Assembly (NCBI GenBank): GCA_963934795.1
Contig: CAWWAF010000001.1
Coordinates: 15,815 to 79,814, forward strand
Length of the DNA: 64,000 nt
Reading direction: 5' to 3'
DNA from: an uncultured bacterium
Lineage (GTDB): Bacteria; Acidobacteriota; Vicinamibacteria; Vicinamibacterales; UBA8438
Positions 1 to 51,014 of this stretch are shown here, piece by piece (within the stretch, counting starts at the first letter, position 1; each line of letters opens with the position of its first letter). Under the pieces are notes generated by a model. The model did no database searches and was not told the origin of the DNA. It was given only the letters and a program-made list of their open reading frames with translations. A program made the translations under genes and the position numbers.

Positions 1-835
1 TCGGCACCATCCCCTTCGGGTGGAACCAGATACCCACATCGGTGACGCTCGTAATCTCTTCGCCGACAGAGTGATAGTGGTTGTCGAACGCGATCCGCGA
101 CCCCACTTTCAACAACTTCCCGGTATTCTCGCGGAAGATGTCACCCACCTTCCCCACCGCGAACTCCGTCAGGTAGCTACCGCGCCCCGGTATATCCACG
201 GCGGCTTCGTGGTCCCCTGGCTGCTCGTCCTGCTGCAGGTAGATGACCGCGTGATGCGTCACCCGACGCCCCTCCAGTGACGGTCGCACTTCCATGCCGG
301 CAATCCACTTGTCCTCGCTCACTCCGGTCTCGACGATCGGCTGCCACCACTGGTCTTGCCCCTCGGCTGCCTGCGTCCATGGATCCGAGGTCACGACGAG
401 ATCCGGTTCGCGGCCGTACTCGTCGGCCAGGCGCCATGCGTTATCGGCCGGCCAGTCTGGCTGCGGTGGCAGGTCGGCCGGATTCCCGCGGGGGGCGCCG
501 GCATCGACCCAACGCGCTACGGTCTCAATCTCCGCGTCGGATAGCGAGATATCGTTCTCAAAGTCCCGGATCCCAACGGTCTTGTCGAGATGCCAGGGCG
601 GCATCACACGCTCGACGACCTTGGTTCGGATTGCCCTCGCCCACGGCCGTACGTCCTCATAGGTCATGAGAGACATCGGACCCATCTGCCCGGGGCGATG
701 GCAGCCCTGACAGCTCCGCTGGAGAATCTGGGCGACATCGCGAGAGAAAGTGACCTCCACCGTCTGGGCGATCGCGGTGGCTGCGGTCAGCGTCAACGTC
801 ACGGCGATCGCGCCACTGCGAGTGGACTGTCTCAT
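1..835 (-). CDS. Exported cytochrome c domain (PSCyt1-like CxxCH) fused to a PHM/DBH-like copper monooxygenase domain. The C-terminus runs off the window.
   Basis: Absent from the ORF track because no stop lies in the window. Reverse translation from ATG at 835 reads MRQSTRSGAIAVTLTLTAATAIAQ (signal peptide), then FSRDVAQILQRSCQGCHRPG...MPPWHLD, then RRVTHHAVIY and FDNHYHSVGEE. It is collinear with the full-length paralog at 30824..32245. Confidence 0.8.
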   Translation of the reverse strand, partial: MRQSTRSGAIAVTLTLTAATAIAQTVEVTFSRDVAQILQRSCQGCHRPGQMGPMSLMTYEDVRPWARAIRTKVVERVMPPWHLDKTVGIRDFENDISLSDAEIETVARWVDAGAPRGNPADLPPQPDWPADNAWRLADEYGREPDLVVTSDPWTQAAEGQDQWWQPIVETGVSEDKWIAGMEVRPSLEGRRVTHHAVIYLQQDEQPGDHEAAVDIPGRGSYLTEFAVGKVGDIFRENTGKLLKVGSRIAFDNHYHSVGEEITSVTDVGIWFHPKGMVP

Positions 836-872: not shown

Positions 873-1733
873 CTACTGTACCTGAACTGAGACATACGCG
901 TTGGTCCAGCAGCAGAAGAACCCGCCAGCCATGATAGCGCTCTGGCCTCCAGAGTCATCCCAGGCTAATACGCGCAACACGTACTCGCCCGGTTGGCTGA
1001 AGGTGACCGTGGTTTCGGACCTCGACATCGAGTCGATGGCCGGCGTGGCATCGTCGAACGTCACCGTCCCCGGTCCTCGGTACTTGCTCCAGACGAGGCC
1101 GAGGCTCGGAGCGCGTTGCGCGTTCCTGGCCCTGCGAACCTCGTCATCGGTGGCCCAGACCGTCAGGGTCGCCGGCGTCAGCGCCGTCGCGGTGAGGGTC
1201 CCCCGCACACCTAGCGGACCCTGCCCCGGGTCTCCACTCGCTCCCCCGAACCTGACGACCGGCGGCGTATTGCCACTCGTCACCTCCCCCAGCGCGGTGA
1301 TCTCCCACTCGGGCCGCACGTGACCGGGAATCGCGATGGTCTCGTGGTTCGCGGTCAACGTCCAGATCAACTGGTCATCAAACCCTGGCGGCACGACCAC
1401 CGCAAACACTCCGGTCTGTCGCCTCGGAAGAAAGTGGGTCGGCTGCCCACGGTCTGCGACACCCGGACTGAACGCGTTCTCTGGCCCGACGGGAATGTCC
1501 AGGTGCTGTTCGTAGTTGCGATTGAAGTAGCCGAACACCAGACTTCGGGTGCCGTCCGAGTTGGGATACCAGCCCTCGAACGATGCAGACACACTTTGAC
1601 CACGGGCGTGTGGCATCGGAGCATCCGTCTTGGTGTCCTGCGCGTCAGCGAGTGCCGGAACCACGGCGGCTATCGCCAGCACACCGAGGCTGACGCGCAG
1701 CCGAGCCCGTCCGTTCGAGGTCAACCTGTACAC
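873..1733 (-). CDS. Secreted hypothetical protein; partner of the heme-monooxygenase gene and paralog of 29994..30797.
   Basis: 286-aa ORF with signal peptide (LGVLAIAAVVPALADAQ). The shared block FGYFNRNYEQHLDIPVGPENAFSPG..DRGQPTHFLP matches FTYFNHNRTTISVPIGEDNMFLTGEPDRGQPTTFLP in the paralog. The C-terminal part looks Ig/PKD-like (PGEYVLRVLAWDDSGG). It lies 38 nt upstream of the 1..835 gene on the same strand. Confidence 0.8.
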   Translation of the reverse strand: MYRLTSNGRARLRVSLGVLAIAAVVPALADAQDTKTDAPMPHARGQSVSASFEGWYPNSDGTRSLVFGYFNRNYEQHLDIPVGPENAFSPGVADRGQPTHFLPRRQTGVFAVVVPPGFDDQLIWTLTANHETIAIPGHVRPEWEITALGEVTSGNTPPVVRFGGASGDPGQGPLGVRGTLTATALTPATLTVWATDDEVRRARNAQRAPSLGLVWSKYRGPGTVTFDDATPAIDSMSRSETTVTFSQPGEYVLRVLAWDDSGGQSAIMAGGFFCCWTNAYVSVQVQ

Positions 1734-28030: not shown

Positions 28031-29983
28031 ATGGATCCACACGCGCACCCGGAACTCACGGTAGCCCTGGCCTTGGCCGCCGGTATTCTGGCCCAATCCG
28101 TCTCACGCCTGCTTCGGCTACCGGGCATCGTGCTCCTCCTGGCCTGCGGTGCGCTGCTCGGGCCCGAAGGGATGGGCTGGATTCAGCCGCGGTCACTTGG
28201 CGAGGGCCTGTTCGGCATTGTCGATTTCGGCGTCGCCATCATTCTGTTCGAGGGCGGACTCAACCTGCAGTGGTCGCGCCTCAAGCGCCAGGAAGCAGCG
28301 ATCCGGCGGTTGATTAGCGTGGGCGCGCTGGCCACGTGGGGCGGCGCCACGTTGCTGGCCACGTTCTTGCTCGGCTGGCGCCTCGAGCTGGCGACGCTCT
28401 TCGGGGCACTCGTCGTGGTGACCGGCCCCACGGTGATTCAACCGTTGCTGAGGGACATGCGACTGCGCCCGCGGGTCAAGACGATTCTGGAGGCTGAAGG
28501 GGTGCTCATCGACCCGGTCGGCGCGCTGCTCGCTGGTTTCCTCCTGCAGTTGGTCATCGCGCCTCGGCTGACCACGTTCGCATCGGAAACGCTCGGGGTC
28601 GTCGTCAGTATCGGCTTTGGGGTCGTCGCGGGTCTGGCGACAGGGTTCGCGCTGGCCGGCGCGTTGCGGTATCGCGTGCTGGTCGCGCGCAACTACGAAA
28701 ATGTCTTTGCCTTGGCCAGCGTCGTATTGCTGTTCGAAGCCTGTAACGCCGTCATGGAGCCGAGCGGCCTGGTGGCGGTCACGGTGGCCGGTGTGGTGAT
28801 CGGCAATCTCGACACCCGGGTGGGACACGAGTTGCGTGAGTTCAAGGACCAACTCACGGTCTTGCTGGTCGGCATGCTCTTCGTACTGCTCTCGGCCGAT
28901 GTCGCACTCGACGATGTGCGCGCGCTGGGCTGGGGCGGACTCGCGGTCGTCGCCGCCCTGATCCTGGTCGTCAGACCGGTCGGTGTGTGGTGGTCCACCC
29001 GCGGCTTGAAGCTGACCCGCCAAGAACGAATCTTCATCGGCGGCGTGGCGCCGCGCGGGATTGTGGCGGCCGCCATCGCCTCCATCACAGCCGCGACACT
29101 TGAGGCGCAGGGCGTCGCCGGCGGTGCCGCCCTGCGCGCCCTCGTGTTTTCGACCATTGCCGGCACTGTCGTGCTGTCCGGGATGTTCGCCTACCCACTC
29201 GCCTGGGTCCTCAACCTACGGCTTCCCGAGCGGGACCGCGTCGCCATCTTTGGCACCGACGGTCTCGCACTCTCGTTAGCCGGTGCGCTCCGCACCGGCG
29301 GTGCCTCGGTGTTGTTCATCGAATCCGATCCCAAGCGTTGCCACGTCGCCGAACAGGCCGGCCATGACGTGGTCTTCGGTGACCCGCTCGACGAGCGCAC
29401 CATGCAGCGCGCGCGGATGGAGTTGGTCGGCACGGTGGTAGGCCTGACGTTCAACGAACACGCCAACGGTCTGTTCGTGCGCGAGGCGCGAGAGTCATAC
29501 GGTGTCGAGCGAGGATATGTTGCCATCGAAGAAATGGACGACTCGCGCACAGCGCACTTGATCCAGCGGTCCGGCCTCGACGTGCTGTTTGACGGACCAC
29601 ACGACCAGGCTCGCTGGGATGTCCGCTGCAGACATGGCGAGATCGACGTCCAGCTCTTCGAGTTCGGTCAGCCAGATCCGCCCCTACCGGCTGCGCCCGA
29701 CGACGGAACAGAGCAACCCGCGCCACCGCCGTCGCCGAGCCCAGGCCCAAACCCGGATCCGGATCCGACGGACTGCTACGCACTGCTCACGCGGCAACGG
29801 CGAGGCCGCGCGTGGCCGTTCCATCTCGGCTTCGTGCCCAAGCCCGGCGACGTAGCCAGTGTCGCGCTGTATCGCCCCGAGCGCGAGGCCGCTATCGCCC
29901 AACTCAATCTGGTGGGCTGGCGCCCGACTTCGGCCGAGATTGTCAGCGTGAGCTGCAAGCCCAACGACACGCGGACACTATAA
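28031..29983 (+). CDS. Cation:proton antiporter (CPA1 Na+/H+ exchanger family) with a C-terminal RCK/TrkA-N-like domain and a Pro-rich tail.
   Basis: 650 aa with a polytopic N-terminal domain (LLACGALLGPEGMGWI, ILFEGGL, EGVLIDPVGA). Followed by RVAIFGTDGLALSLAGALRTGGASVLFIESD. Confidence 0.9.
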   Translation: MDPHAHPELTVALALAAGILAQSVSRLLRLPGIVLLLACGALLGPEGMGWIQPRSLGEGLFGIVDFGVAIILFEGGLNLQWSRLKRQEAAIRRLISVGALATWGGATLLATFLLGWRLELATLFGALVVVTGPTVIQPLLRDMRLRPRVKTILEAEGVLIDPVGALLAGFLLQLVIAPRLTTFASETLGVVVSIGFGVVAGLATGFALAGALRYRVLVARNYENVFALASVVLLFEACNAVMEPSGLVAVTVAGVVIGNLDTRVGHELREFKDQLTVLLVGMLFVLLSADVALDDVRALGWGGLAVVAALILVVRPVGVWWSTRGLKLTRQERIFIGGVAPRGIVAAAIASITAATLEAQGVAGGAALRALVFSTIAGTVVLSGMFAYPLAWVLNLRLPERDRVAIFGTDGLALSLAGALRTGGASVLFIESDPKRCHVAEQAGHDVVFGDPLDERTMQRARMELVGTVVGLTFNEHANGLFVREARESYGVERGYVAIEEMDDSRTAHLIQRSGLDVLFDGPHDQARWDVRCRHGEIDVQLFEFGQPDPPLPAAPDDGTEQPAPPPSPSPGPNPDPDPTDCYALLTRQRRGRAWPFHLGFVPKPGDVASVALYRPEREAAIAQLNLVGWRPTSAEIVSVSCKPNDTRTL

Positions 29984-29993
29984 TTGCGCCAAC

Positions 29994-30797
29994 ATGCATC
30001 GCATCGACACACGGACCGGCACACGCAGCGCAGCAACCCAGACAGCGCTGGTCGTGGTGGTGTCCATCGTAGTCGGGCTGGTGGTCACGGCCTTCTTGGT
30101 GGTGGCACCACCACTCTCCGCCCGGCAGACCACCACGTCGCTCTTTCCGGCCTACGACGGCTTCGCCTACAACGACGATGGGTCTTTGCTCTTGGCGTTC
30201 ACCTACTTCAATCACAACCGCACGACGATTTCGGTGCCCATCGGCGAGGACAACATGTTCCTGACGGGTGAACCCGACCGGGGCCAACCGACGACCTTCC
30301 TCCCGGGACACCACCGGTTTCAATGCATGATGGTCGTCGACGGCGATTTCGACGGGGTGCTCCGCTGGCGCCTCTCCTTGGGCGACGAGACCCACCTCAC
30401 CAGTGATTCGATGCTGCAATACAGCTGGGAATTCGATGCCAACAGCGAACGACAGGCCCGCCGAGACGTCGACCCCACGACCGCGCCACGCAATGTCTGT
30501 TTGAATCGGTCACCGATCGTGCGAGTCCTCGGTCCGACCGAATTGACAGGGACGGTGGGTGAGGGCGTGAAGCTCTTCGGCAGCGTGCGAGACGAGGGCC
30601 TCCCACGCGACGTGCCGGTGACAGCGGCGTGGCAGCAAACCAGTGGACCAGGCACCGCCACGTTTGACGTACCCGACACCCCGAGAACCCTCGCCTTTTT
30701 TGACAGGCCGGGCTCCTACACGGTCGAGCTGAGAGGTAGCGACGGCGTGTTCGAACGCACCGCCTCCGTCACCGTCGACATCCAACCCGCCCGCTAG
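29994..30797 (+). CDS. Exported hypothetical protein; partner of the heme-monooxygenase gene and paralog of 873..1733.
   Basis: 267 aa with an N-terminal TM/signal (ALVVVVSIVVGLVVTAFLVVA). Shares blocks with 873..1733 and has a C-terminal Ig-like part (PGSYTVELRGSDGVFERTASVTVDIQ). Convergent with 30824..32245, gap 26 nt. Confidence 0.8.
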   Translation: MHRIDTRTGTRSAATQTALVVVVSIVVGLVVTAFLVVAPPLSARQTTTSLFPAYDGFAYNDDGSLLLAFTYFNHNRTTISVPIGEDNMFLTGEPDRGQPTTFLPGHHRFQCMMVVDGDFDGVLRWRLSLGDETHLTSDSMLQYSWEFDANSERQARRDVDPTTAPRNVCLNRSPIVRVLGPTELTGTVGEGVKLFGSVRDEGLPRDVPVTAAWQQTSGPGTATFDVPDTPRTLAFFDRPGSYTVELRGSDGVFERTASVTVDIQPAR

Positions 30798-30823
30798 CGA
30801 CGAGACCGGGTTCAACCGTTCCG

Positions 30824-32245
30824 CTACTGCTCGTTATTCGTACGCTGGGGATTGGCGAGTCGGTCCATCTGTTCCGCGCGGCGCTCCTCATACTGCTCGT
30901 CGGTCATGAAAGCGATGTCGGTCCAGGCGTTGCCCATGTCATCCATGGTGCGGGCACCCCATCCGATCCAGGCGGACGGGTCAGGATTGTGCTTGTTGGC
31001 AGCGGTGTTGTCGTGCCACGCCACCGAGTGCAGGATCGTGCCAGCGGGGAACAGGTGGGGTTCCGCATAGGTATACGTCAACTGCCAGACCTGCTCGTAA
31101 TTCGGCACGTCCGTCAGCAGCTGGCGCCGCCCGTCCGCGTGAATCGCTTCGAGCAGCATGCGGCTTCCCCTGAAGTGCATGTGGGGCTGAAAGTTGATGA
31201 CAATCGCCGGTTGCTCAAGCCGAAGGAAACGCTCTGAGCGGGCGACGGTGTGCGGCGGAATGCTGAGCTGCGCCAGGCTGTTGACGTTGCCCTCGGTCAA
31301 AAAGGGCTCCAGCGGCGTCTCGCCATCGAGCGGTAGGTCGACGCCCTGCTTGAGCAACAGGTCTTCGACTTTCTCTCGGTTCAACGTCCAGTCGTCGCCG
31401 ATGCCGGTCCTGATACGGTGCGACGTGACCTCGAGGTCAGGCACCTCGCCGCGCGGATAGAACTTGATACCGACGCGTGAGATGTCGTGAACCTCTTCGC
31501 CCCAGGGATGGTAGTGGGGCGCAAACCGGAACTTGGACCCGGCGTACAACATCTTGCCAGTCCCCTCCGGAAAGTAGTCACCTTTGTTTCCCATGACGTA
31601 CTCGGTGACGTGCACGGGATCAATGTCCTCGGTGTCGTCGGGGTTCTCCTCGGTAAAGGCGTAGACGTGTTCGTGATGCACGCAGCAGTTCGCGGTCGTG
31701 AGCAGCTGGACCCACTGCATGTGTCGGTCTTCGGTGAGTCCGGACTCGACCGTCTCCGACGGGAACATGTCGGCACCCTCCGCAGAGATGGTGAAACCTT
31801 TCTCCATCGAGACGATCATGTCTGGCTCGCCCCAGGCCCACTCGTCGAGCGAGGCGAGATCCAATGGCGGCGGTGCGTCCTCCGGATTTCCTTGCGGTGC
31901 GCCGGCCTCGACCCACCCGACGATGGTCGCAATCTCAGCGTCGCTAAGCGAGGGGTCGTCGCGGTAGACGCCAATGGCCCGGTCAAGGTGCCACGGCGGC
32001 ATCTGCCGCGCACTCACGCGGTCTTTGATGGCTCGCGCCCACGGCCGAACCTGGCCATACGTAAGCAATGACATTGGTGCCGCGGTGCCAGGACGATGGC
32101 AACTCTGGCAGGAGCGCTGGAGCAACGGCAGCACATCTTTCGTGAACGTCGGCGCCTCTGCCTCGGTCGCCGCGGCTACGGGCGCGGGACTACCGATGAC
32201 ACACGCCAGCGCAAGCAGACCGACAACGGTGATGACTCGCTTCAC
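30824..32245 (-). CDS. Exported cytochrome c domain (PSCyt1-like CxxCH) fused to a PHM/DBH-like two-copper monooxygenase domain.
   Basis: 473 aa. Signal peptide, then FTKDVLPLLQRSCQSCHRPG...RQMPPWHLD. Followed by CCVHHEHVY, FAPHYHPWG, FQPHMHFRG and TMDDMGNAW, in the order of the CuH (H,H,H) and CuM (H,H,M) ligands of peptidylglycine alpha-hydroxylating monooxygenase. Confidence 0.85.
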   Translation of the reverse strand: MKRVITVVGLLALACVIGSPAPVAAATEAEAPTFTKDVLPLLQRSCQSCHRPGTAAPMSLLTYGQVRPWARAIKDRVSARQMPPWHLDRAIGVYRDDPSLSDAEIATIVGWVEAGAPQGNPEDAPPPLDLASLDEWAWGEPDMIVSMEKGFTISAEGADMFPSETVESGLTEDRHMQWVQLLTTANCCVHHEHVYAFTEENPDDTEDIDPVHVTEYVMGNKGDYFPEGTGKMLYAGSKFRFAPHYHPWGEEVHDISRVGIKFYPRGEVPDLEVTSHRIRTGIGDDWTLNREKVEDLLLKQGVDLPLDGETPLEPFLTEGNVNSLAQLSIPPHTVARSERFLRLEQPAIVINFQPHMHFRGSRMLLEAIHADGRRQLLTDVPNYEQVWQLTYTYAEPHLFPAGTILHSVAWHDNTAANKHNPDPSAWIGWGARTMDDMGNAWTDIAFMTDEQYEERRAEQMDRLANPQRTNNEQ

Positions 32246-32389
32246 AACTGCCTCCGGTATCTCGCCAGGGTCCTGCGAACGCGGGGGGCCATACTGGACG
32301 AGTGAAATTGGGCAAGGTCAGCATAGCGTCCGGTGCCGGTGCCACGCAACAGGATTCGCCTGGGCTGGCGGGTATACTGCGTGGTCATC

Positions 32390-33704
32390 ATGCAGATCAC
32401 ATTTCACGGCGCCGCGCGCGGGGTCACGGGATCTTGCCACTTGGTCGAGTGCGGCGGCACACGCATCCTCCTCGACTGCGGCTTGATCCAAGGGGGACGT
32501 GAGCGGCACGAGCGCAATCGAACGCCGTTCCCGTTCGACCCCGCGACCATCGACGCCGTCGTTCTCAGTCACGCGCACATCGATCACTCGGGGCGGCCTC
32601 CGCTGCTGCGGAAACACGGATACCGAGGCCCTATCTTCACCACGGCCACGACCGCGCGTCTGCTTGAGATCATGCTGGCCGACTCGGGCCACATCCAGGA
32701 AGAAGACGCCCGCTGGAAGATCAAGCGGCTCAAGAAACAAAAGCAGGACGCGAGCTGGGTCACGCCGCTCTACACGGAGCAAGATGCCCTCGCCCTCCTC
32801 GGGCAGCTGGTGCCGGTTGGGCTGGGTTACACCGAGTCGCTGCCGGGGGGCGCTCAGGTCACGTTCGTGCCAGCTGGCCACATTTTGGGCGCGGCCATCA
32901 TTGAGCTGCGACTGGACGATGACGGCACCACACGCCGCCTGGTCTTCTCAGGCGACCTCGGGGTCCAGGGCTCCCGGCTGCTGCCACCGCCCCGGACGGT
33001 CGAGCGGCCGGACTACCTCATCATGGAGTCGACATACGGTGACCGAGAGCGGGAAGACGAGGACGACCGGACGGAGATGCTCTTCGACATCATTCGCGAC
33101 ACGACGGCGCGAGGCGGGAAGGTCATCATCCCGTCCTTCGCGGTCGGTCGGACGCAGGAGATACTCACCCGCCTGAACGACCTCGTAGAAACGGGCCGGC
33201 TGCCGGGCCTACGAGTGTTCGTCGACAGCCCCATGGCGGTCGCCGCCACCAAGGCGTTCGCTCTTCATCCCGAGTCATACTCCGGTCCGGTAAGGGAACT
33301 CCTGGCCAGCGGTGATCATCTCCGCGTCTGGCATGTGTACGGCGGGACGAGTGAAGCATCATCTGAAACACACGATAGCCGATGCCAAGAACACGATCGT
33401 CTTCGTGGGCTACCAGGCCGCCAGGTCGCTCGGCCGGATCATTCAGTCCGGCGTCTCGCCGGTGCGGATCTTCGGCCATTCGTATCCGCTGAACGCCCGG
33501 GTCGAGACCATCGAGGGCTTCTCTGCGCACGCGGACCGCACGGAGCTGCTGGACTGGTTCGAAGGGCTGGGCGGTACACCAGAGCGGACATTCTTGGTGC
33601 ACGGCGAGGAAACGGCCGCGCTCGCCTTCGCCACCTCGCTCGTCGACCGGTTCGCCGCCACGGTCACCGTGCCCACGCTCGGCGAGTGCGTCGATCTGTC
33701 GTGA
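32390..33704 (+). pseudogene. MBL-fold beta-CASP metallo-hydrolase (RNA-metabolising type), disrupted by an internal out-of-frame deletion near 33290..33315.
   Basis: Frame A reads MQITFHGAARGVTGSCHLVE...LSHAHIDHSG...AGHILGAA...ESTYGDR...FALHPESYSGPVRELLASG. Homology then resumes in another frame as VIISASGMCTAGRVKHHLK...GFSAHADRTELLDW...FLVHGE (ORF 33312..33704). About 25 aa normally found between these blocks is missing. Confidence 0.7.
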
Positions 33705-33791
33705 CCATGCACACCGAGTCTCCGAGAACACGGACAGACGGGCACTAAAACGCGCCGCGTCTGGACGCACCCCCGGGGACCGATTCAGTGC

Positions 33792-48197: not shown

Positions 48198-48973
48198 ATG
48201 ATGCCCACAGAACACACCGTGTCTGTCAACGGATTCGAGCTGCGCTACCAACTCAGCGGGCACGGTGACCCGCTGCTGCTCCTGCACGGGTTTCTCGGGT
48301 CCGGTGACACCTGTCCACCATCCTCGGCGGCCTCGATCGGTTCGACCAGCATTACCAGTTGATCGTGCCAGACCTGCGTGGCCACGGGGGCTCGACCAAC
48401 CCCAGCGGCGAATTCAGCATGCGTCAGTCCGCGCTCGACATCTTTGCGTTACTCGATCATCTCCATATCGAGCGCTGCAGGGCGATCGGGATGAGCGGGG
48501 GCGGCATGACCCTGTTGCACATGGCCACCCAGGCCCCCCACCGGGTGCAAGCGGCGGTGTTGATCAGCGCCACGACCCACTTTCCTGAGCAGGCTCGGAC
48601 CCTGATGCGGGGTACGACGGAAGAAGCCCAGACGGAGGACAGTTGGACCATGATGCGCACCTCGCATCATCACGGGGACGAACAGATTCGGGCGATCTGG
48701 CGAGTGGCACAAGGGTTTGCCCAGAGCAAGGACGACATGGCGTTCACCGCAAAGACCTTGGCGTCCATCACGGCTCCGACGCTAGTCGTGCACGGTGACC
48801 GCGACCCCTTCTTCCCCTTGGACATCGCGCTCTCGATACACGACGCCATTCCGGCGTCCTGGCTCTGGGTCGTGCCGAACGGTGGACATCTGAGCCTGGT
48901 CGCTGAGGGCTTGTCGGATCAATTCGTGGTCACGGCCACGGCGTTTCTCCGGGGTGACTGGCCGTCGACCTAG
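48198..48973 (+). pseudogene. Alpha/beta hydrolase, frameshifted by an apparent 1-nt deletion near 48312..48313.
   Basis: Frame A gives MMPTEHTVSVNGFELRYQLSGHGDPLLLLHGFLGSGDT. Homology continues in the next frame as STILGGLDRFDQHYQLIVPDLRGHGGS...GMSGGG...GDRDP...GGH. Restoring one G in acc-tg-tcc (to acc tgg tcc) gives GSGDTWSTILGG. Confidence 0.7.
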
Positions 48974-49016
48974 TCTCCAGGACCTCTGCGTCCGCCTCGT
49001 GTGGCACACTCTACCC

Positions 49017-51014
49017 ATGTTCCACAGACACACGACACGTGCGGTCCACACCCTGTTTGCCGTGCTCCTGGTGACAGCGGCCCAGGCATCGGCCCAACAG
49101 GGCGCTCCGAACGGCGAGTGGCCGACCTACGGCGGCGACCTCGGACACACGCGGTACTCGGCACTCGACCAGATCGACGCCGGCACGTTCAATGATCTGG
49201 AATTGGCGTGGCGATTCAACACCGCGAATCTGGGGCCCGGACCGGAGTACATCTTCCAGTCGACGCCGCTGATGGTGAACGGCGTGCTCTACACGACGGC
49301 CGGCACCCGACGGGCCGCGGTGGCCCTGGACGCCACGACCGGCGAGATGCTGTGGATCCACCGACTCAACGAAGGTGAACGGGGCGCTGGCGCACCGCGC
49401 CGGTTGTCTGGTCGCGGGCTGACCTACTGGAACGACGGCGACGACGGCGTCATCTTCTACGTGACGCCCGGCTACCGCTTGATTGCCCTCAACGCCCTTA
49501 CCGGACGGCGCATGGCTGACTTCGCTGACGAGGGCATGTTGGACCTGAAACAAGGGCTGGATCAGGACCTCGCGTCGGACGCCGAGATCGGTCTGCACGC
49601 GGCCCCGGTGATCTCGAACGGGGTCATCATGATCGGCGCGGCCCATCTGGCAGGCGTTGCGCCCGCCACGAAAGAAAAACCGAAAGGCTATGTGCGCGGC
49701 TTCGATGCGCGGTCCGGTGAGCGGAAATGGATCTTCCACACGATCCCGACCGCCGACGAGCTGGGCAACGACAGCTGGGGCAACGACTCGTGGCGCTACA
49801 CCGGGAACACGGGCGTCTGGGGCCAGATGACCATCGACGAAGAGCTCGGCTACGTCTATCTCCCGGTGGAGATGCCGACCGGCGACCTCTACGGTGGGCA
49901 TCGTCCAGGCGACAACCTGTTTGCCGACAGCATTGTGGCGATCGAGATCGCCACCGGCAACCGGGTGTGGCACTTCCAGACCGTGCACCACGACGTCTGG
50001 GACTTCGACCTGCCAAGCGCTCCCATTCTGGTCGACATCACGGTGGAGGGTCTGGCGATCAAGGCGGTCGCACAGCCCACCAAGATGGGTTTTCTGTTTG
50101 TGCTCGACCGAACCAACGGCGAGCCGGTGTGGCCGATCGAAGAACGCCCGGTTCCACAATCGGACGTCCCTGGCGAGATCACCTCCGCCACCCAGCCCTT
50201 CCCCACCAAGCCACCGCCGTTCGACCGCCAAGGTGTCACAGTCGACGACTTGATCGACTTCACGCCGGAGCTACGGCGACGGGCCGAGGAAGTCGTGACA
50301 CGTTACCGGATGGGACCGCTCTTCTCCCCGCCGTCCGTGGCGACATTGGACGGCACGCTGGGAACGCTCCACCTGCCTGGCCTGACCGGGGGCTCGAACT
50401 GGCCAGGTGGCTCGTTCGACCCCGAGACCGGCATCTTCTACCAGTACTCGAAGACCGAGGTCCACGGTTTGGGGCTGGTCAACAATCCCGAGCGCTCGAA
50501 CATGGACTACATCATGGGGCGACCGCGACCACCGGCCGGGGCCGCCGGAGGACGCGGGGGTCGAGGCGGGGGCGGGTTCGTGGGTACTAACATCGAGGGC
50601 ATCACGATCGTCAAACCACCATGGGGGCGGATCACCGCCATCGACCTGAACCGGGGGGAAATCGCGTGGCAGGTGGCGCACGGCGAAACCCCGGACAACA
50701 TCCGAAATCACCCACTGCTGGAGGGCATCGATGTCCCGCGTACCGGGGTCGCGAACGCCCGCATCGGCACGCTGGTTACCAGGACGCTCGTCATCGCCGG
50801 CGACGGCGGCTTGTTCACGAACGCGGAGGGAGTCCGAGGCTCCGCGCTCCGCGCGTACGACAAGGCTACCGGCGCGGAAGTGGGCACCGTGGCGTTGCCG
50901 GTACCGGCCACCGGGTCGCCGATGACCTACATGGCCGACGACGAGCAGTATCTGGTGGTGGCGATCGCCGGTGGTGGATTCGCGGGCGAGCTGTGGGCGT
51001 TCAAAGCCCCGTAG
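49017..51014 (+). CDS. PQQ-dependent dehydrogenase (quinoprotein glucose/alcohol dehydrogenase superfamily), exported.
   Basis: Signal peptide, then GEWPTYGGDLGHTRYSALDQI. Eight-blade propeller W-motifs. Contains VHHDVWDFDLPSAP. Confidence 0.9.
   Translation: MFHRHTTRAVHTLFAVLLVTAAQASAQQGAPNGEWPTYGGDLGHTRYSALDQIDAGTFNDLELAWRFNTANLGPGPEYIFQSTPLMVNGVLYTTAGTRRAAVALDATTGEMLWIHRLNEGERGAGAPRRLSGRGLTYWNDGDDGVIFYVTPGYRLIALNALTGRRMADFADEGMLDLKQGLDQDLASDAEIGLHAAPVISNGVIMIGAAHLAGVAPATKEKPKGYVRGFDARSGERKWIFHTIPTADELGNDSWGNDSWRYTGNTGVWGQMTIDEELGYVYLPVEMPTGDLYGGHRPGDNLFADSIVAIEIATGNRVWHFQTVHHDVWDFDLPSAPILVDITVEGLAIKAVAQPTKMGFLFVLDRTNGEPVWPIEERPVPQSDVPGEITSATQPFPTKPPPFDRQGVTVDDLIDFTPELRRRAEEVVTRYRMGPLFSPPSVATLDGTLGTLHLPGLTGGSNWPGGSFDPETGIFYQYSKTEVHGLGLVNNPERSNMDYIMGRPRPPAGAAGGRGGRGGGGFVGTNIEGITIVKPPWGRITAIDLNRGEIAWQVAHGETPDNIRNHPLLEGIDVPRTGVANARIGTLVTRTLVIAGDGGLFTNAEGVRGSALRAYDKATGAEVGTVALPVPATGSPMTYMADDEQYLVVAIAGGGFAGELWAFKAP

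Follow-up and report, generated by a model that had tools for sequence, protein, structure and literature searches.

Does an uncultured bacterium of the Vicinamibacterales (Acidobacteriota) encode a copper oxygenase of the peptidylglycine alpha-hydroxylating monooxygenase (PHM) and dopamine beta-hydroxylase (DBH) type that carries its own electron donor as a covalently attached heme c? PHM, DBH and tyramine beta-monooxygenase (TBM) are the textbook examples of non-coupled binuclear copper monooxygenases and are treated as eukaryotic, ascorbate-dependent enzymes. The question was raised by a first-pass annotation of the window, i.e. the whole stretch of 64,000 nucleotides that was analyzed, in which one ORF (30824..32245) was read as encoding an exported protein that joins a c-type heme domain to a two-copper module like that of PHM/DBH. 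In a 2022 PNAS paper, PHM was described as widespread in eukaryotes and contrasted with the bacterial PNGase F (PMC8812541). No publication or solved structure of a bacterial heme-PHM protein family was found in our search, the literature coverage of which was incomplete. The features of the locus are collected in Table 1.

Domain layout of the exported protein

According to the ORF list, the gene encodes 473 amino acids from a GTG start. Our results support a fusion of three parts, i.e. a Sec signal peptide, a domain with a single heme c, and a module of two beta-sandwiches homologous to PHM/DBH. In the N-terminus, MKRVITVVGLLALACVIGSPAPVAAA, the n, h, and c regions of a Sec signal peptide can be recognized, by inspection only, which agrees with the export proposed in the first-pass annotation and is consistent with the export required for heme c maturation. 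This stretch varies in sequence and length among homologues and was modelled with low pLDDT. A lipoprotein reading based on C15 was rejected, as the lipobox deviates from the canonical form and homologues do not conserve C15. The only cysteines of the mature protein are C46 and C49, assigned to the heme, together with C187 and C188. Scanning of positions 29800-32500 revealed neither promoter nor terminator.

All motifs quoted in the first-pass annotation were recovered from the ORF in the order given, namely FTKDVLPLLQRSCQSCHRPG (residues 34-53, including the CxxCH of C46/C49/H50), MPPWHLD (82-88), CCVHHEHVY (187-195, containing H190/H191), APHYHPWG (242-249, H244/H246), QPHMHFRG (353-360, H355/H357), and TMDDMGNAW (433-441, M434/M437). 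Among 43 homologues of 58-85% identity, no variation is seen at C46, C49, H50, M82, H190, H191, H244, H246, H355, H357, and M437, and the six putative copper ligands among them are conserved in 76 or 77 of 77 divergent relatives (27-43% identity, the set to which all counts out of 77 refer). The motif pattern is thus not a product of chance.

Table 1. Features of the heme c/PHM-like locus and its paralogous pair (window positions)
Feature	Position	Strand	Basis
Complete CDS, heme c/PHM-like fusion (473 aa + stop)	30824..32245	-	ORF list; >5,900 homologues; structure model
Shine-Dalgarno GGAGG, 5 nt 5' of GTG start	32251..32255	-	Sequence read
Sec-type signal peptide, residues 1-26 (MKR / hydrophobic core / PVAAA)	32168..32245	-	By inspection
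Mono-heme c-type cytochrome domain, residues 33-125, three helices	31871..32149	-	Sub-threshold Pfam matches; model helices
Predicted heme attachment CQSCH (C46, C49, proximal His50)	32096..32110	-	Conservation 74/77, 3 gaps
MPPW motif	31991..32002	-	M82/P83/P84 invariant 77/77; fixed 36-residue spacing from CxxCH
N-terminal beta-sandwich, PHM CuH-domain equivalent, residues 140-281	31403..31828	-	Foldseek; hhalign
H190-H191, aligned with PHM CuH ligands H107-H108	31673..31678	-	hhalign; 76/77 each
H244, aligned with PHM CuH ligand H172; HY motif common to both families	31514..31516	-	hhalign; 76/77
Interdomain-linker insertion, about 40 residues (282-322), clade-specific, partly helical	31280..31402	-	hhalign; model; spacing
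C-terminal beta-sandwich, PHM CuM-domain equivalent, residues 328-447	30905..31264	-	Foldseek; hhalign; Pfam in relatives
H355-M-H357, aligned with PHM CuM ligands H242 and H244	31175..31183	-	hhalign; 77/77 each
M437, aligned with PHM CuM ligand M314; D-E/D-M motif common	30935..30937	-	hhalign; 76/77
Partner gene, 267-aa secreted protein, two tandem Ig-like domains	29994..30797	+	Linkage; PF22352; AF2 and fold matches
Second heme/PHM-like paralogue, partial (window edge), keeps CxxCH, MPPWH, HH, HYH	2..832	-	tblastn 42% identity, E 3e-63; pairwise alignment
Second paralogue of partner (286 aa), immediately upstream of partial paralogue, same strand	873..1733	-	tblastn 29% identity, E 1e-15; ORF

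The heme domain comprises helices at residues 34-47, 63-78, and 102-113 of the AF2 model. In Pfam, the window protein remained below the gathering threshold of every cytochrome c family; the best scores were obtained with Cytochrome_CBB3 (16.9 bits, cut-off 27), Haem_bd (14.1, cut-off 27), and Cytochrom_C (13, cut-off 21.3), the first two of which were matched in 27 and 8 of the 77 relatives, respectively. The first-pass label "PSCyt1-type" was not confirmed: the protein does resemble PSCyt1 (PF07635) and the heme domain of hydrazine synthase alpha in the pattern F-x-x-D-[VI]-x-P-I-L-x-x-x-C-x-x-CH ... MPP ... L-[ST]-x-x-[ED] ... W-[VI]-x-x-GA, but no PF07635 match was obtained for it at E<=10, nor for any of the 77 relatives at E<=0.001. 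A weak, non-significant match was seen to hydrazine synthase alpha (E 0.63).

Among 81 full-length representatives, CxxCH is present in 78 and occurs exactly once in 77. Judged from this and from the rigid spacing to MPPW, the heme module is obligatory across the superfamily. M82 of the MPPW motif is the probable sixth (distal) heme ligand, an assignment inferred from conservation, as the model contains no heme. The CuH domain follows the heme domain directly in the fusion, and the linker between them was confidently modelled (pLDDT 82-95, residues 110-140).

The PHM/DBH-like module and its putative copper sites

The AF2 model (pTM 0.75) was compared with the PDB by Foldseek, a check on the PHM fold that the first-pass annotation had itself proposed. 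The top 31 matches were PHM or DBH only (E 2e-10 to 2e-8, probability 1.0), with alignments of about 330-350 columns covering both domains of targets of about 285-312 residues. Target-normalised TM scores for the PHM chains were 0.50-0.60, while DBH (PDB 4ZEL) ranked 9 and 17 (E 5e-10 and 1.6e-9). The next tier consisted of bicupins with rmsd >20 Å. When an alignment of the 77 diverse relatives was run against a PHM alignment in hhalign, a probability of 96.5% was reached (E 1e-9, 242 columns) and each of the six putative ligands was matched to the corresponding PHM residue; the reversed control reached 0.2%. The N-domain alone aligned with PHM columns 39-178 (93%, E 3e-7) and the C-domain alone with columns 192-306 (57%, E 1e-4). 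This success depended on divergent relatives gathered by an exhaustive representative search; with the shallow alignment of 43 sequences (Neff about 2), hhalign gave 4% probability and a mis-registered alignment.

Direct sequence searches were less informative. No copper-monooxygenase family of Pfam matched the window protein, even at E<=10, and no direct match was found in NCBIfam or, by single-sequence and profile search, in the PDB. However, Cu2_monoox_C (PF03712) was matched in the C-domain region by 25 of the 77 divergent relatives at E<=1e-3, and at least one of them exceeds the gathering score (relative P0307, 25.9 bits, cut-off 23), so that a Pfam match of the kind to be searched for according to the first-pass annotation is found in some relatives and not in the protein itself. 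PF01082 (Cu2_monooxygen), the other Pfam family of the PHM/DBH superfamily (clan CL0612), was matched by none of the 77. The assignment of the C-terminal module as a PHM/DBH-like two-copper module is thus supported by three independent tests, i.e. fold, profile-profile comparison, and the Pfam bridge through relatives, copper binding being inferred.

PHM, the catalytic core of PAM (PDB 1PHM, 1OPM, 1SDW), shares with the window protein the two tandem beta-sandwich domains, CuH and CuM ligands that align one-to-one, and the local motifs VHH, (Q)xHY, HxHxxG, and D-E-M, at an identity of only about 10-14%. Based on this alignment, the full non-coupled binuclear ligand set is retained, with H190/H191/H244 as putative CuH ligands and H355/H357/M437 as putative CuM ligands; copper occupancy is inferred. 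The ligands named in the first-pass annotation hold up with one correction: in HYH only H244 is a ligand equivalent, whereas H246 is conserved in the close clade only. H246 is one of several additional His and Met residues close to the two sites (H193, H246, M363, H411, M434) that are invariant in the close clade and not superfamily-wide.

The bacterial, periplasmic window protein differs from PHM in several respects. PHM relies on soluble ascorbate, whereas the window protein has an N-terminal covalent heme c domain. It also has a C-terminal helix and the interdomain insertion, which was unaligned in hhalign and modelled with low pLDDT around a helix at residues 284-299; the distance from CxxCH to HxH is accordingly 309 residues, compared with a superfamily median of 267. 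The intradomain disulfide cysteines, which form invariant columns in the PHM family, are lacking in the mature protein. Arg240, the carboxylate clamp of PHM, is replaced by Q353, a Gln that does not vary within the clade but does across the superfamily, and since this clamp is absent, peptidylglycine is an unlikely substrate as far as can be read from the alignment. The equivalent of Asn316, N439, is variable across the superfamily, and Tyr318 corresponds to W441 with aromatic character kept. Since the residues by which PHM binds its substrate are not conserved, a chemistry other than hydroxylation is possible.

DBH, TBM, and MOXD1 have the same catalytic core fold and ligand set as the window protein. 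DBH also resembles it in having an accessory domain N-terminal to the CuH domain, but in DBH this is a DOMON domain, accompanied by a dimerisation domain, while the window protein has a class-I-like heme c domain in this place. Evidence of a catecholamine-type substrate is lacking for the window protein. A functional analogy only is provided by the cytochrome domains of cellobiose dehydrogenase (CDH) and CYBDOM proteins, which deliver single electrons to the mononuclear copper oxygenase site of LPMOs and so replace a small-molecule reductant. Those systems use heme b, unrelated folds, separate polypeptides, and a histidine-brace copper, whereas the window protein combines heme c and a PHM-type two-copper core in one polypeptide.

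A large bacterial superfamily and a linked Ig-like partner

The first-pass annotation had suggested a survey of how often the heme fusion occurs. The arrangement is not rare: the window protein has more than 5,900 homologues, and heme c plus the PHM-like module forms the constant core of a bacterial superfamily of very large size (4,823 representatives at 50% identity). The family is abundant in marine and freshwater metagenomes as well as in soil Acidobacteriota, often in several copies. In 36 of the 77 divergent relatives an N-terminal AhpC/TSA-redoxin domain resembling ResA and PrxQ is fused to this core. These uncharacterised redoxin-cytochrome c-Cu2_monoox_C proteins (PF00578/PF08534, PF13442, and PF03712; 27-43% identity) share the ligand columns and the CxxCH-36-MPPW spacing of the window protein. 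The latter represents a "minimal" form with a signal peptide and without a redoxin or EF-hand module, and it differs further in its 40-residue insertion, its extra invariant His/Met residues, and its dedicated Ig-like partner gene.

Metagenomes were scanned with a 17-sequence redoxin-type subset as query. Neighbour clustering of the 80 redoxin-type loci obtained revealed no strongly recurrent neighbour and no conserved substrate-related operon, and a general inference of substrate from operon content was therefore dropped. Several clusters of seemingly conserved neighbours in high-GC loci were discarded as Arg/Pro-rich antisense artefacts. The Ig-like partner gene was not seen beside the redoxin-type genes.

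Not recognized before this follow-up were the linkage to a secreted partner with two Ig-like domains and a second, partial pair in the window. The partner gene is convergent with the heme/PHM-like gene, with 26 bp between the stop codons. Its product contains an N-domain and a K319L-like PKD domain (AF2 pLDDT 83) with Ig/PKD fold matches, none of them enzyme-like, and PF22352 was matched by 40 of 45 homologues. In 66 of 81 related loci, a partner gene lies within 600 bp of the heme/PHM-like gene, in three different orientations. The pairing is near one-to-one and is kept through inversions and tandem duplications, tandem paralogues each having their own partner; one related locus (L056) contains three pairs, and the window contains two. 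Y54, H74, H106, H107, W125, Y143, W145, C111, and C169 are invariant in the partner, although the second paralogue in the window lacks H106/H107, with PRRQ in place of GHHR.

No copper-homeostasis genes were found next to the heme/PHM-like gene. A gene of the PQQ-ADH family without a heme of its own directly adjoins it in 9 of the 81 loci, and PQQ-repeat propellers adjoin two distant family members; PQQ adjacency is a minority pattern only. The PQQ dehydrogenase gene of the window lies 17 kb away, and by NCBIfam its product falls near the "acido-empty-quinoprotein" group, which may lack PQQ.

Proposed electron path and alternative readings

We favour, with a probability of roughly 0.6, a periplasmic copper oxygenase that contains heme c and two coppers, is fed by cytochromes, and acts together with the Ig-like partner. 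Heme would be attached at C46/C49 with His50 as proximal and Met82 as distal ligand, and would take up single electrons from periplasmic redox partners such as soluble cytochromes, or in some loci from the neighbouring cytochrome-less PQQ dehydrogenase. Electrons may then pass from the heme to the adjacent CuH domain and on to CuM, where O2 would be activated and a C-H bond of the substrate oxygenated. Heme c would thereby take the place of ascorbate; its role as a built-in electron donor is a reasonable inference. In the Vicinamibacterales branch, the dedicated partner would most likely serve as a substrate-binding or substrate-presenting subunit. The ORF with its motifs, the fold, the alignment and conservation of the ligands, the size of the family, and the linkage to the partner are established by the analysis, whereas heme and copper occupancy, the direction of electron flow, reductant-dependent oxygenase chemistry, and the role of the partner are all inferred. 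Experimental evidence for heme, copper, or any activity is lacking, and copper-site geometry and the heme-CuH distance are unmeasured. The redoxin domain fused to many relatives could moreover point to thiol or peroxide chemistry in the family instead of oxygenation.

The same cofactors could instead belong to a small-molecule oxidase or reductase passing electrons from heme via copper to O2, H2O2, nitrite, or NO, comparable to cytochrome-c-fused copper nitrite reductases or to a periplasmic peroxide or oxygen scavenger. This is the alternative that survives best, although we consider it unlikely. The frequent redoxin fusion suggests redox-stress or thiol chemistry, conserved equivalents of PHM Arg240 and Asn316 are missing, the redoxin-type loci hold no conserved substrate-related operon, and the CuM site of PHM can bind nitrite, azide, and CO, as seen from the titles of PDB matches. 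To our knowledge, however, the complete His3 plus His2Met set in a two-domain cleft is found among characterised proteins only in the substrate-hydroxylating enzymes PHM, DBH, and TBM, and the expansion of paralogues with paired partners resembles substrate diversification more than a housekeeping scavenger.

Less probable still is an oxygenase that modifies a protein, namely its own two-Ig-domain partner, in which a residue would be hydroxylated or oxidised. Models for such a reaction are MbnH acting on MbnP and MauG acting on pre-methylamine dehydrogenase. The persistent near one-to-one pairing would fit, as would a partner without enzyme-like fold that bears invariant Tyr, Trp, His, and Cys residues; the insertion and the extra invariant His/Met of the heme/PHM-like protein also occur in the partner-bearing branch. 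Yet evidence for an interaction or a modification is lacking, H106/H107 are lost in the second partner paralogue of the window, the comparison with MbnH/MbnP is by analogy only, and a structural or substrate-binding subunit is equally possible.

Non-catalytic copper handling, in which a periplasmic buffer, sensor, or chaperone has merely retained the PHM-like fold, appears very doubtful. Extra His/Met residues like those of the close clade are common in copper-trafficking proteins, but they are not superfamily-wide as the six catalytic-type ligands are, a buffer or chaperone would hardly account for an obligatory covalent redox heme, and adjoining copper-homeostasis genes are lacking. That the motif order is a chance resemblance in a C-terminal region unrelated to PHM/DBH, for which the missing direct matches and the 4% of the shallow hhalign run might speak, is refuted by the exclusive PHM/DBH top of the Foldseek results, by 96.5% versus 0.2% in hhalign, and by the PF03712 matches in relatives, and deserves next to no credence.

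A wider reading built on the cytochrome-fed oxygenase can be offered only tentatively. The window protein would represent, in minimal form, a vast and unrecognised class of bacterial copper oxygenases of the PHM/DBH type that are driven by cytochrome c and do not depend on ascorbate. In the Vicinamibacterales it would operate as a dedicated two-protein system with an Ig-like partner that is either a substrate-presenting subunit or a protein substrate. At some loci, electrons might come from an adjacent cytochrome-less PQQ alcohol dehydrogenase, so that Cu/O2 hydroxylation and the subsequent PQQ dehydrogenation would be linked electronically within the periplasm.

This bacterial superfamily, which comprises thousands of clusters at 50% identity, keeps the full ligand set, with heme c in cis near-universal. 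If the cytochrome-fed oxygenase reading is true, the family would provide an expressible, spectroscopically addressable bacterial model for two long-standing problems: how electrons cross from CuH to CuM in PHM, and whether open/closed domain motion gates this transfer. It would also connect the chemistry of copper oxygenases directly with the cytochrome pool of respiration, and an unknown, environmentally relevant oxidative reaction may be hidden in the family.

Heme c domain and PHM/DBH fold of the fusion protein

All motifs quoted in the first-pass annotation were found, in the stated order, in the ORF of the 473-aa heme c/PHM-like fusion protein (window G+C content ~65%), and none of their Cys, His and Met residues varies across 43 homologues (58–85% identity). 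The search scored over 5,900 homologues at E ≤ 1e-3, and the closest genomic relatives were all Vicinamibacterales or Acidobacteriota MAGs. The ORF is a genuine gene under selection.

Features of the fusion protein and its surroundings (window coordinates, or residues of the fusion protein)
Feature	Position	Strand	Remarks
Fusion protein ORF, 473 codons	32245 -> 30824	-	GTG start
Shine-Dalgarno GGAGG	32251-32255	-	5 nt 5' of GTG
Signal-peptide-like N-terminus			first quoted motif
Three-helix N-terminal domain	residues ~33-125		AlphaFold2 model
CQSCH	residues 46-50
MPPWH	residues 82-86
First beta-sandwich	residues ~140-281		AlphaFold2 model
VHH	residues 189-191		H190, H191 each conserved in 76/77 relatives
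HYH	residues 244-246		H244 conserved in 76/77
Insertion	residues 282-326		AlphaFold2 model; partly helical, poorly modelled
Clade-specific interdomain insertion, ~40 residues	31280-31402	-	Vicinamibacterales clade
Second beta-sandwich	residues ~328-447		AlphaFold2 model
HMH	residues 355-357		H355, H357 each conserved in 77/77
DDM	residues 435-437		M437 conserved in 76/77
C-terminal helix	after second beta-sandwich		AlphaFold2 model
Partner ORF, 267 aa	29994-30797	+	secreted, two Ig-like (PKD-like) domains
Second fusion paralogue	832..2	-	42% identity; cut by window start
Second partner paralogue	1733..873	-	29% identity; directly upstream of truncated paralogue, same strand
PQQ-ADH-family beta-propeller	48954-51014	+	Pfam PQQ, E 2e-182; 17 kb from fusion gene
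MBL/beta-CASP gene (RNase J/CPSF-like), first ORF	32333-33748	+	Beta-Casp profile positions 1-60
MBL/beta-CASP gene, second ORF	33312-33704	+	profile positions 78-119 and RMMBL domain

A Pfam scan of the fusion protein at E ≤ 10 returned none of Cu2_monooxygen, Cu2_monoox_C and PSCyt1, NCBIfam gave no match, and a PDB sequence search with the protein alone or the 43-sequence profile gave no significant match; in public sources, members go under the names 'hypothetical protein' or 'cytochrome c'. Cu2_monoox_C was recovered in relatives, on the C-terminal domain of 25 of 77 and in some above the gathering threshold, which supports the assignment independently of the profile-profile comparison below. 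Residues 34–113 matched only cytochrome c families, all sub-threshold; the nearest are Cytochrome_CBB3 and Haem_bd, and the PSCyt1 label first given to the heme module is unsupported.

The AlphaFold2 model, computed from the alignment of 43 sequences (mean pLDDT 76.8, pTM 0.75), shows the heme domain joined directly to the CuH-type domain by a linker modelled with confidence. When the model was compared with the PDB using Foldseek, the best 31 matches were without exception rat PHM or human DBH, at probability 1.0 and E values of 2e-10 to 2e-8, over ~330–350 aligned columns and with TM, normalised to the target structure, up to 0.60; the following tier consisted of bicupins with rmsd >20 Å. 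No bacterial homologue was among the PDB matches, and a family member with solved structure thus seems to be absent.

The protein is exported and contains a site for covalent attachment of heme c. CxxCH is present in 74 of 77 aligned relatives, the remaining three being gapped there, and M82-P83-P84 is kept in all 77; from its invariance, Met82 is inferred to be the sixth heme ligand. Of the 81 representatives with a length of 400 aa or more, 78 contain CxxCH (exactly one in 77); its spacing to MPPW is a rigid 36 residues, and the HxH motif follows at a distance of ~267. The pairing is thus the fixed core of the superfamily and not an occasional fusion.

Copper ligands and differences from PHM

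The reference PHM sequence was checked against PDB 1SDW chain A and proved identical; its ligands were confirmed as H107, H108, H172, H242, H244 and M314. A first profile-profile comparison with a shallow alignment failed (4% probability). Residues 128–473 were then searched exhaustively against 1.84 billion cluster representatives, giving 4,823 at E ≤ 1e-3, of which 2,134 passed E ≤ 1e-10. From these, 77 sequences (27–43% identity to the fusion protein) went into a deep alignment, which was matched to an alignment of 34 PHM sequences. The match (96.5% probability, E 1e-9) spanned 242 columns across both domains and paired H190/H191 with PHM H107/H108, H244 with H172 (family-level context Q-x-H-Y on both sides), H355/H357 with H242/H244, and M437 with M314 (D-E-M common to both). 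The CuH (His,His,His) and CuM (His,His,Met) order read from the sequence at first pass is borne out, and the PHM/DBH-fold module has all six copper ligands conserved. In control comparisons, the isolated N-domain matched the CuH half of PHM (93%, E 3e-7) and the isolated C-domain matched the CuM half (57%, E 1e-4). The heme domain gave no match to the PHM alignment, and reversing that alignment reduced the probability to 0.2%; together with the Foldseek result, the deep match and the reversed control exclude chance resemblance to PHM/DBH.

Identity to PHM is only ~10–14%, and the PHM disulfide cysteines are missing. Arg240 of PHM clamps the peptidyl-glycine carboxylate; the corresponding residue is Gln353, at a position variable across the superfamily, as is that of Asn316, whereas the equivalent of Tyr318 is still aromatic. 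The protein is a relative that has the PHM/DBH fold and the metal-site layout of these enzymes, and is not a peptidylglycine hydroxylase orthologue. Unlike PHM, its clade carries a ~40-residue insertion at the interdomain linker. Five further residues near the two copper-site motifs (H193, H246, M363, H411 and M434) are invariant solely in this close Vicinamibacterales clade; neither they nor the insertion are conserved in the wider superfamily, and they could provide a surface for docking the partner or a further metal site.

Genomic neighbourhood

The fusion gene appears monocistronic, divergent from the beta-CASP gene and convergent with the partner ORF (26 bp between stops). The beta-CASP gene is split over two frames, indicating a frameshift near 33.30–33.33 kb that either stems from misassembly or marks a pseudogene. 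A partner homologue was found by tblastn in 77 of 81 related loci, in 66 less than 600 bp away, in three arrangements (downstream convergent, downstream co-directional and upstream divergent), and tandem paralogues each have their own. The 267-aa ORF is a conserved partner genomically locked to the fusion gene, its role unknown. It carries a signal peptide, invariant Y54, H74, H106, H107, W125, W145, C111 and C169, and, in 40 of 45 homologues, a K319L-like PKD domain. Its confident model (pLDDT 83) shows two tandem Ig-like sandwiches matching generic Ig/PKD proteins only. In the second partner paralogue, PRRQ replaces the GHHR motif. The family tends to form tandem arrays (loci are numbered with L): L056 has three fusion paralogues, a partner with each, L081 has three, and L084 and L085 (one assembly, GCA_054033915.1) have several consecutive paralogues with an additional AhpC/TSA-redoxin domain (redoxin-type), one of which is 1,251 aa long and has two such domains.

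The other recurrent neighbour is a PQQ-dependent alcohol-dehydrogenase-family gene (L050, L063, L070–L079, L080, L085), directly downstream in 9 of 81 loci (Vicinamibacterales); in the PDB it is most similar to quinohemoprotein ADH (E 2e-36), but it lacks a heme domain. The window's copy matches 'acido-empty-quinoprotein group A' of NCBIfam below threshold, leaving its PQQ occupancy uncertain. Two distant redoxin-type members, and the family gene in 2 of 80 divergent redoxin-type metagenomic loci, are likewise flanked by PQQ-repeat propellers; those 80 have no strongly recurring neighbour, so the partner and PQQ links are branch-specific. L071, L072 and L073, from MAGs labelled 'uncultured Bifidobacterium sp.' and 'Acidimicrobiia bacterium', carry the fusion gene at 57–60% identity and share partner and PQQ-ADH neighbours with the loci from Acidobacteriota; the names probably reflect mistakes in binning or labelling. 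Redoxin-type relatives in metagenomic and NCBI loci (L086/L087, L110, L114, L124, L125) often lie among sulfatases, DUF1501 and PSCyt/DUF1549-DUF1553-type genes, a context typical of Planctomycetota and Verrucomicrobiota (taxonomy of these loci unchecked).

Proposed mechanism and relevance

Every functional statement is still inference. The heme c (His50/Met82) would take single electrons from periplasmic donors and reduce CuH, which would relay them to CuM; CuM may then activate O2 and oxygenate an unknown, non-peptidylglycine substrate, with the Ig-like partner binding or presenting the substrate, or being it. The same cofactors could instead serve a small-molecule oxidase or reductase, as the redoxin fusions suggest: the superfamily varies at its N-terminus, which is either a signal peptide only (30–60 residues before CxxCH, as here) or has 180–320 extra residues, an AhpC/TSA-redoxin domain (Pfam) in 36 of 77 relatives, ResA- or PrxQ-like by NCBIfam, in some preceded by EF-hands (18 of 77). 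A partner-modifying enzyme and a copper-handling protein are further readings of these cofactors.

A literature search of limited coverage found no paper on a bacterial heme c/PHM-like fusion protein, and PHM was described as a eukaryotic family in 2022 (PMC8812541). The sequences are not unseen, since part of the superfamily already carries a Cu2_monoox_C tag in domain databases. To our knowledge, several of its traits are so far undescribed and uncharacterised: the obligatory heme c fusion, the conservation of all ligands, the architecture in its minimal form, the insertion specific to the clade and the dedicated partner. The heme c/PHM-like family is of potential relevance to copper bioinorganic chemistry and environmental microbiology.
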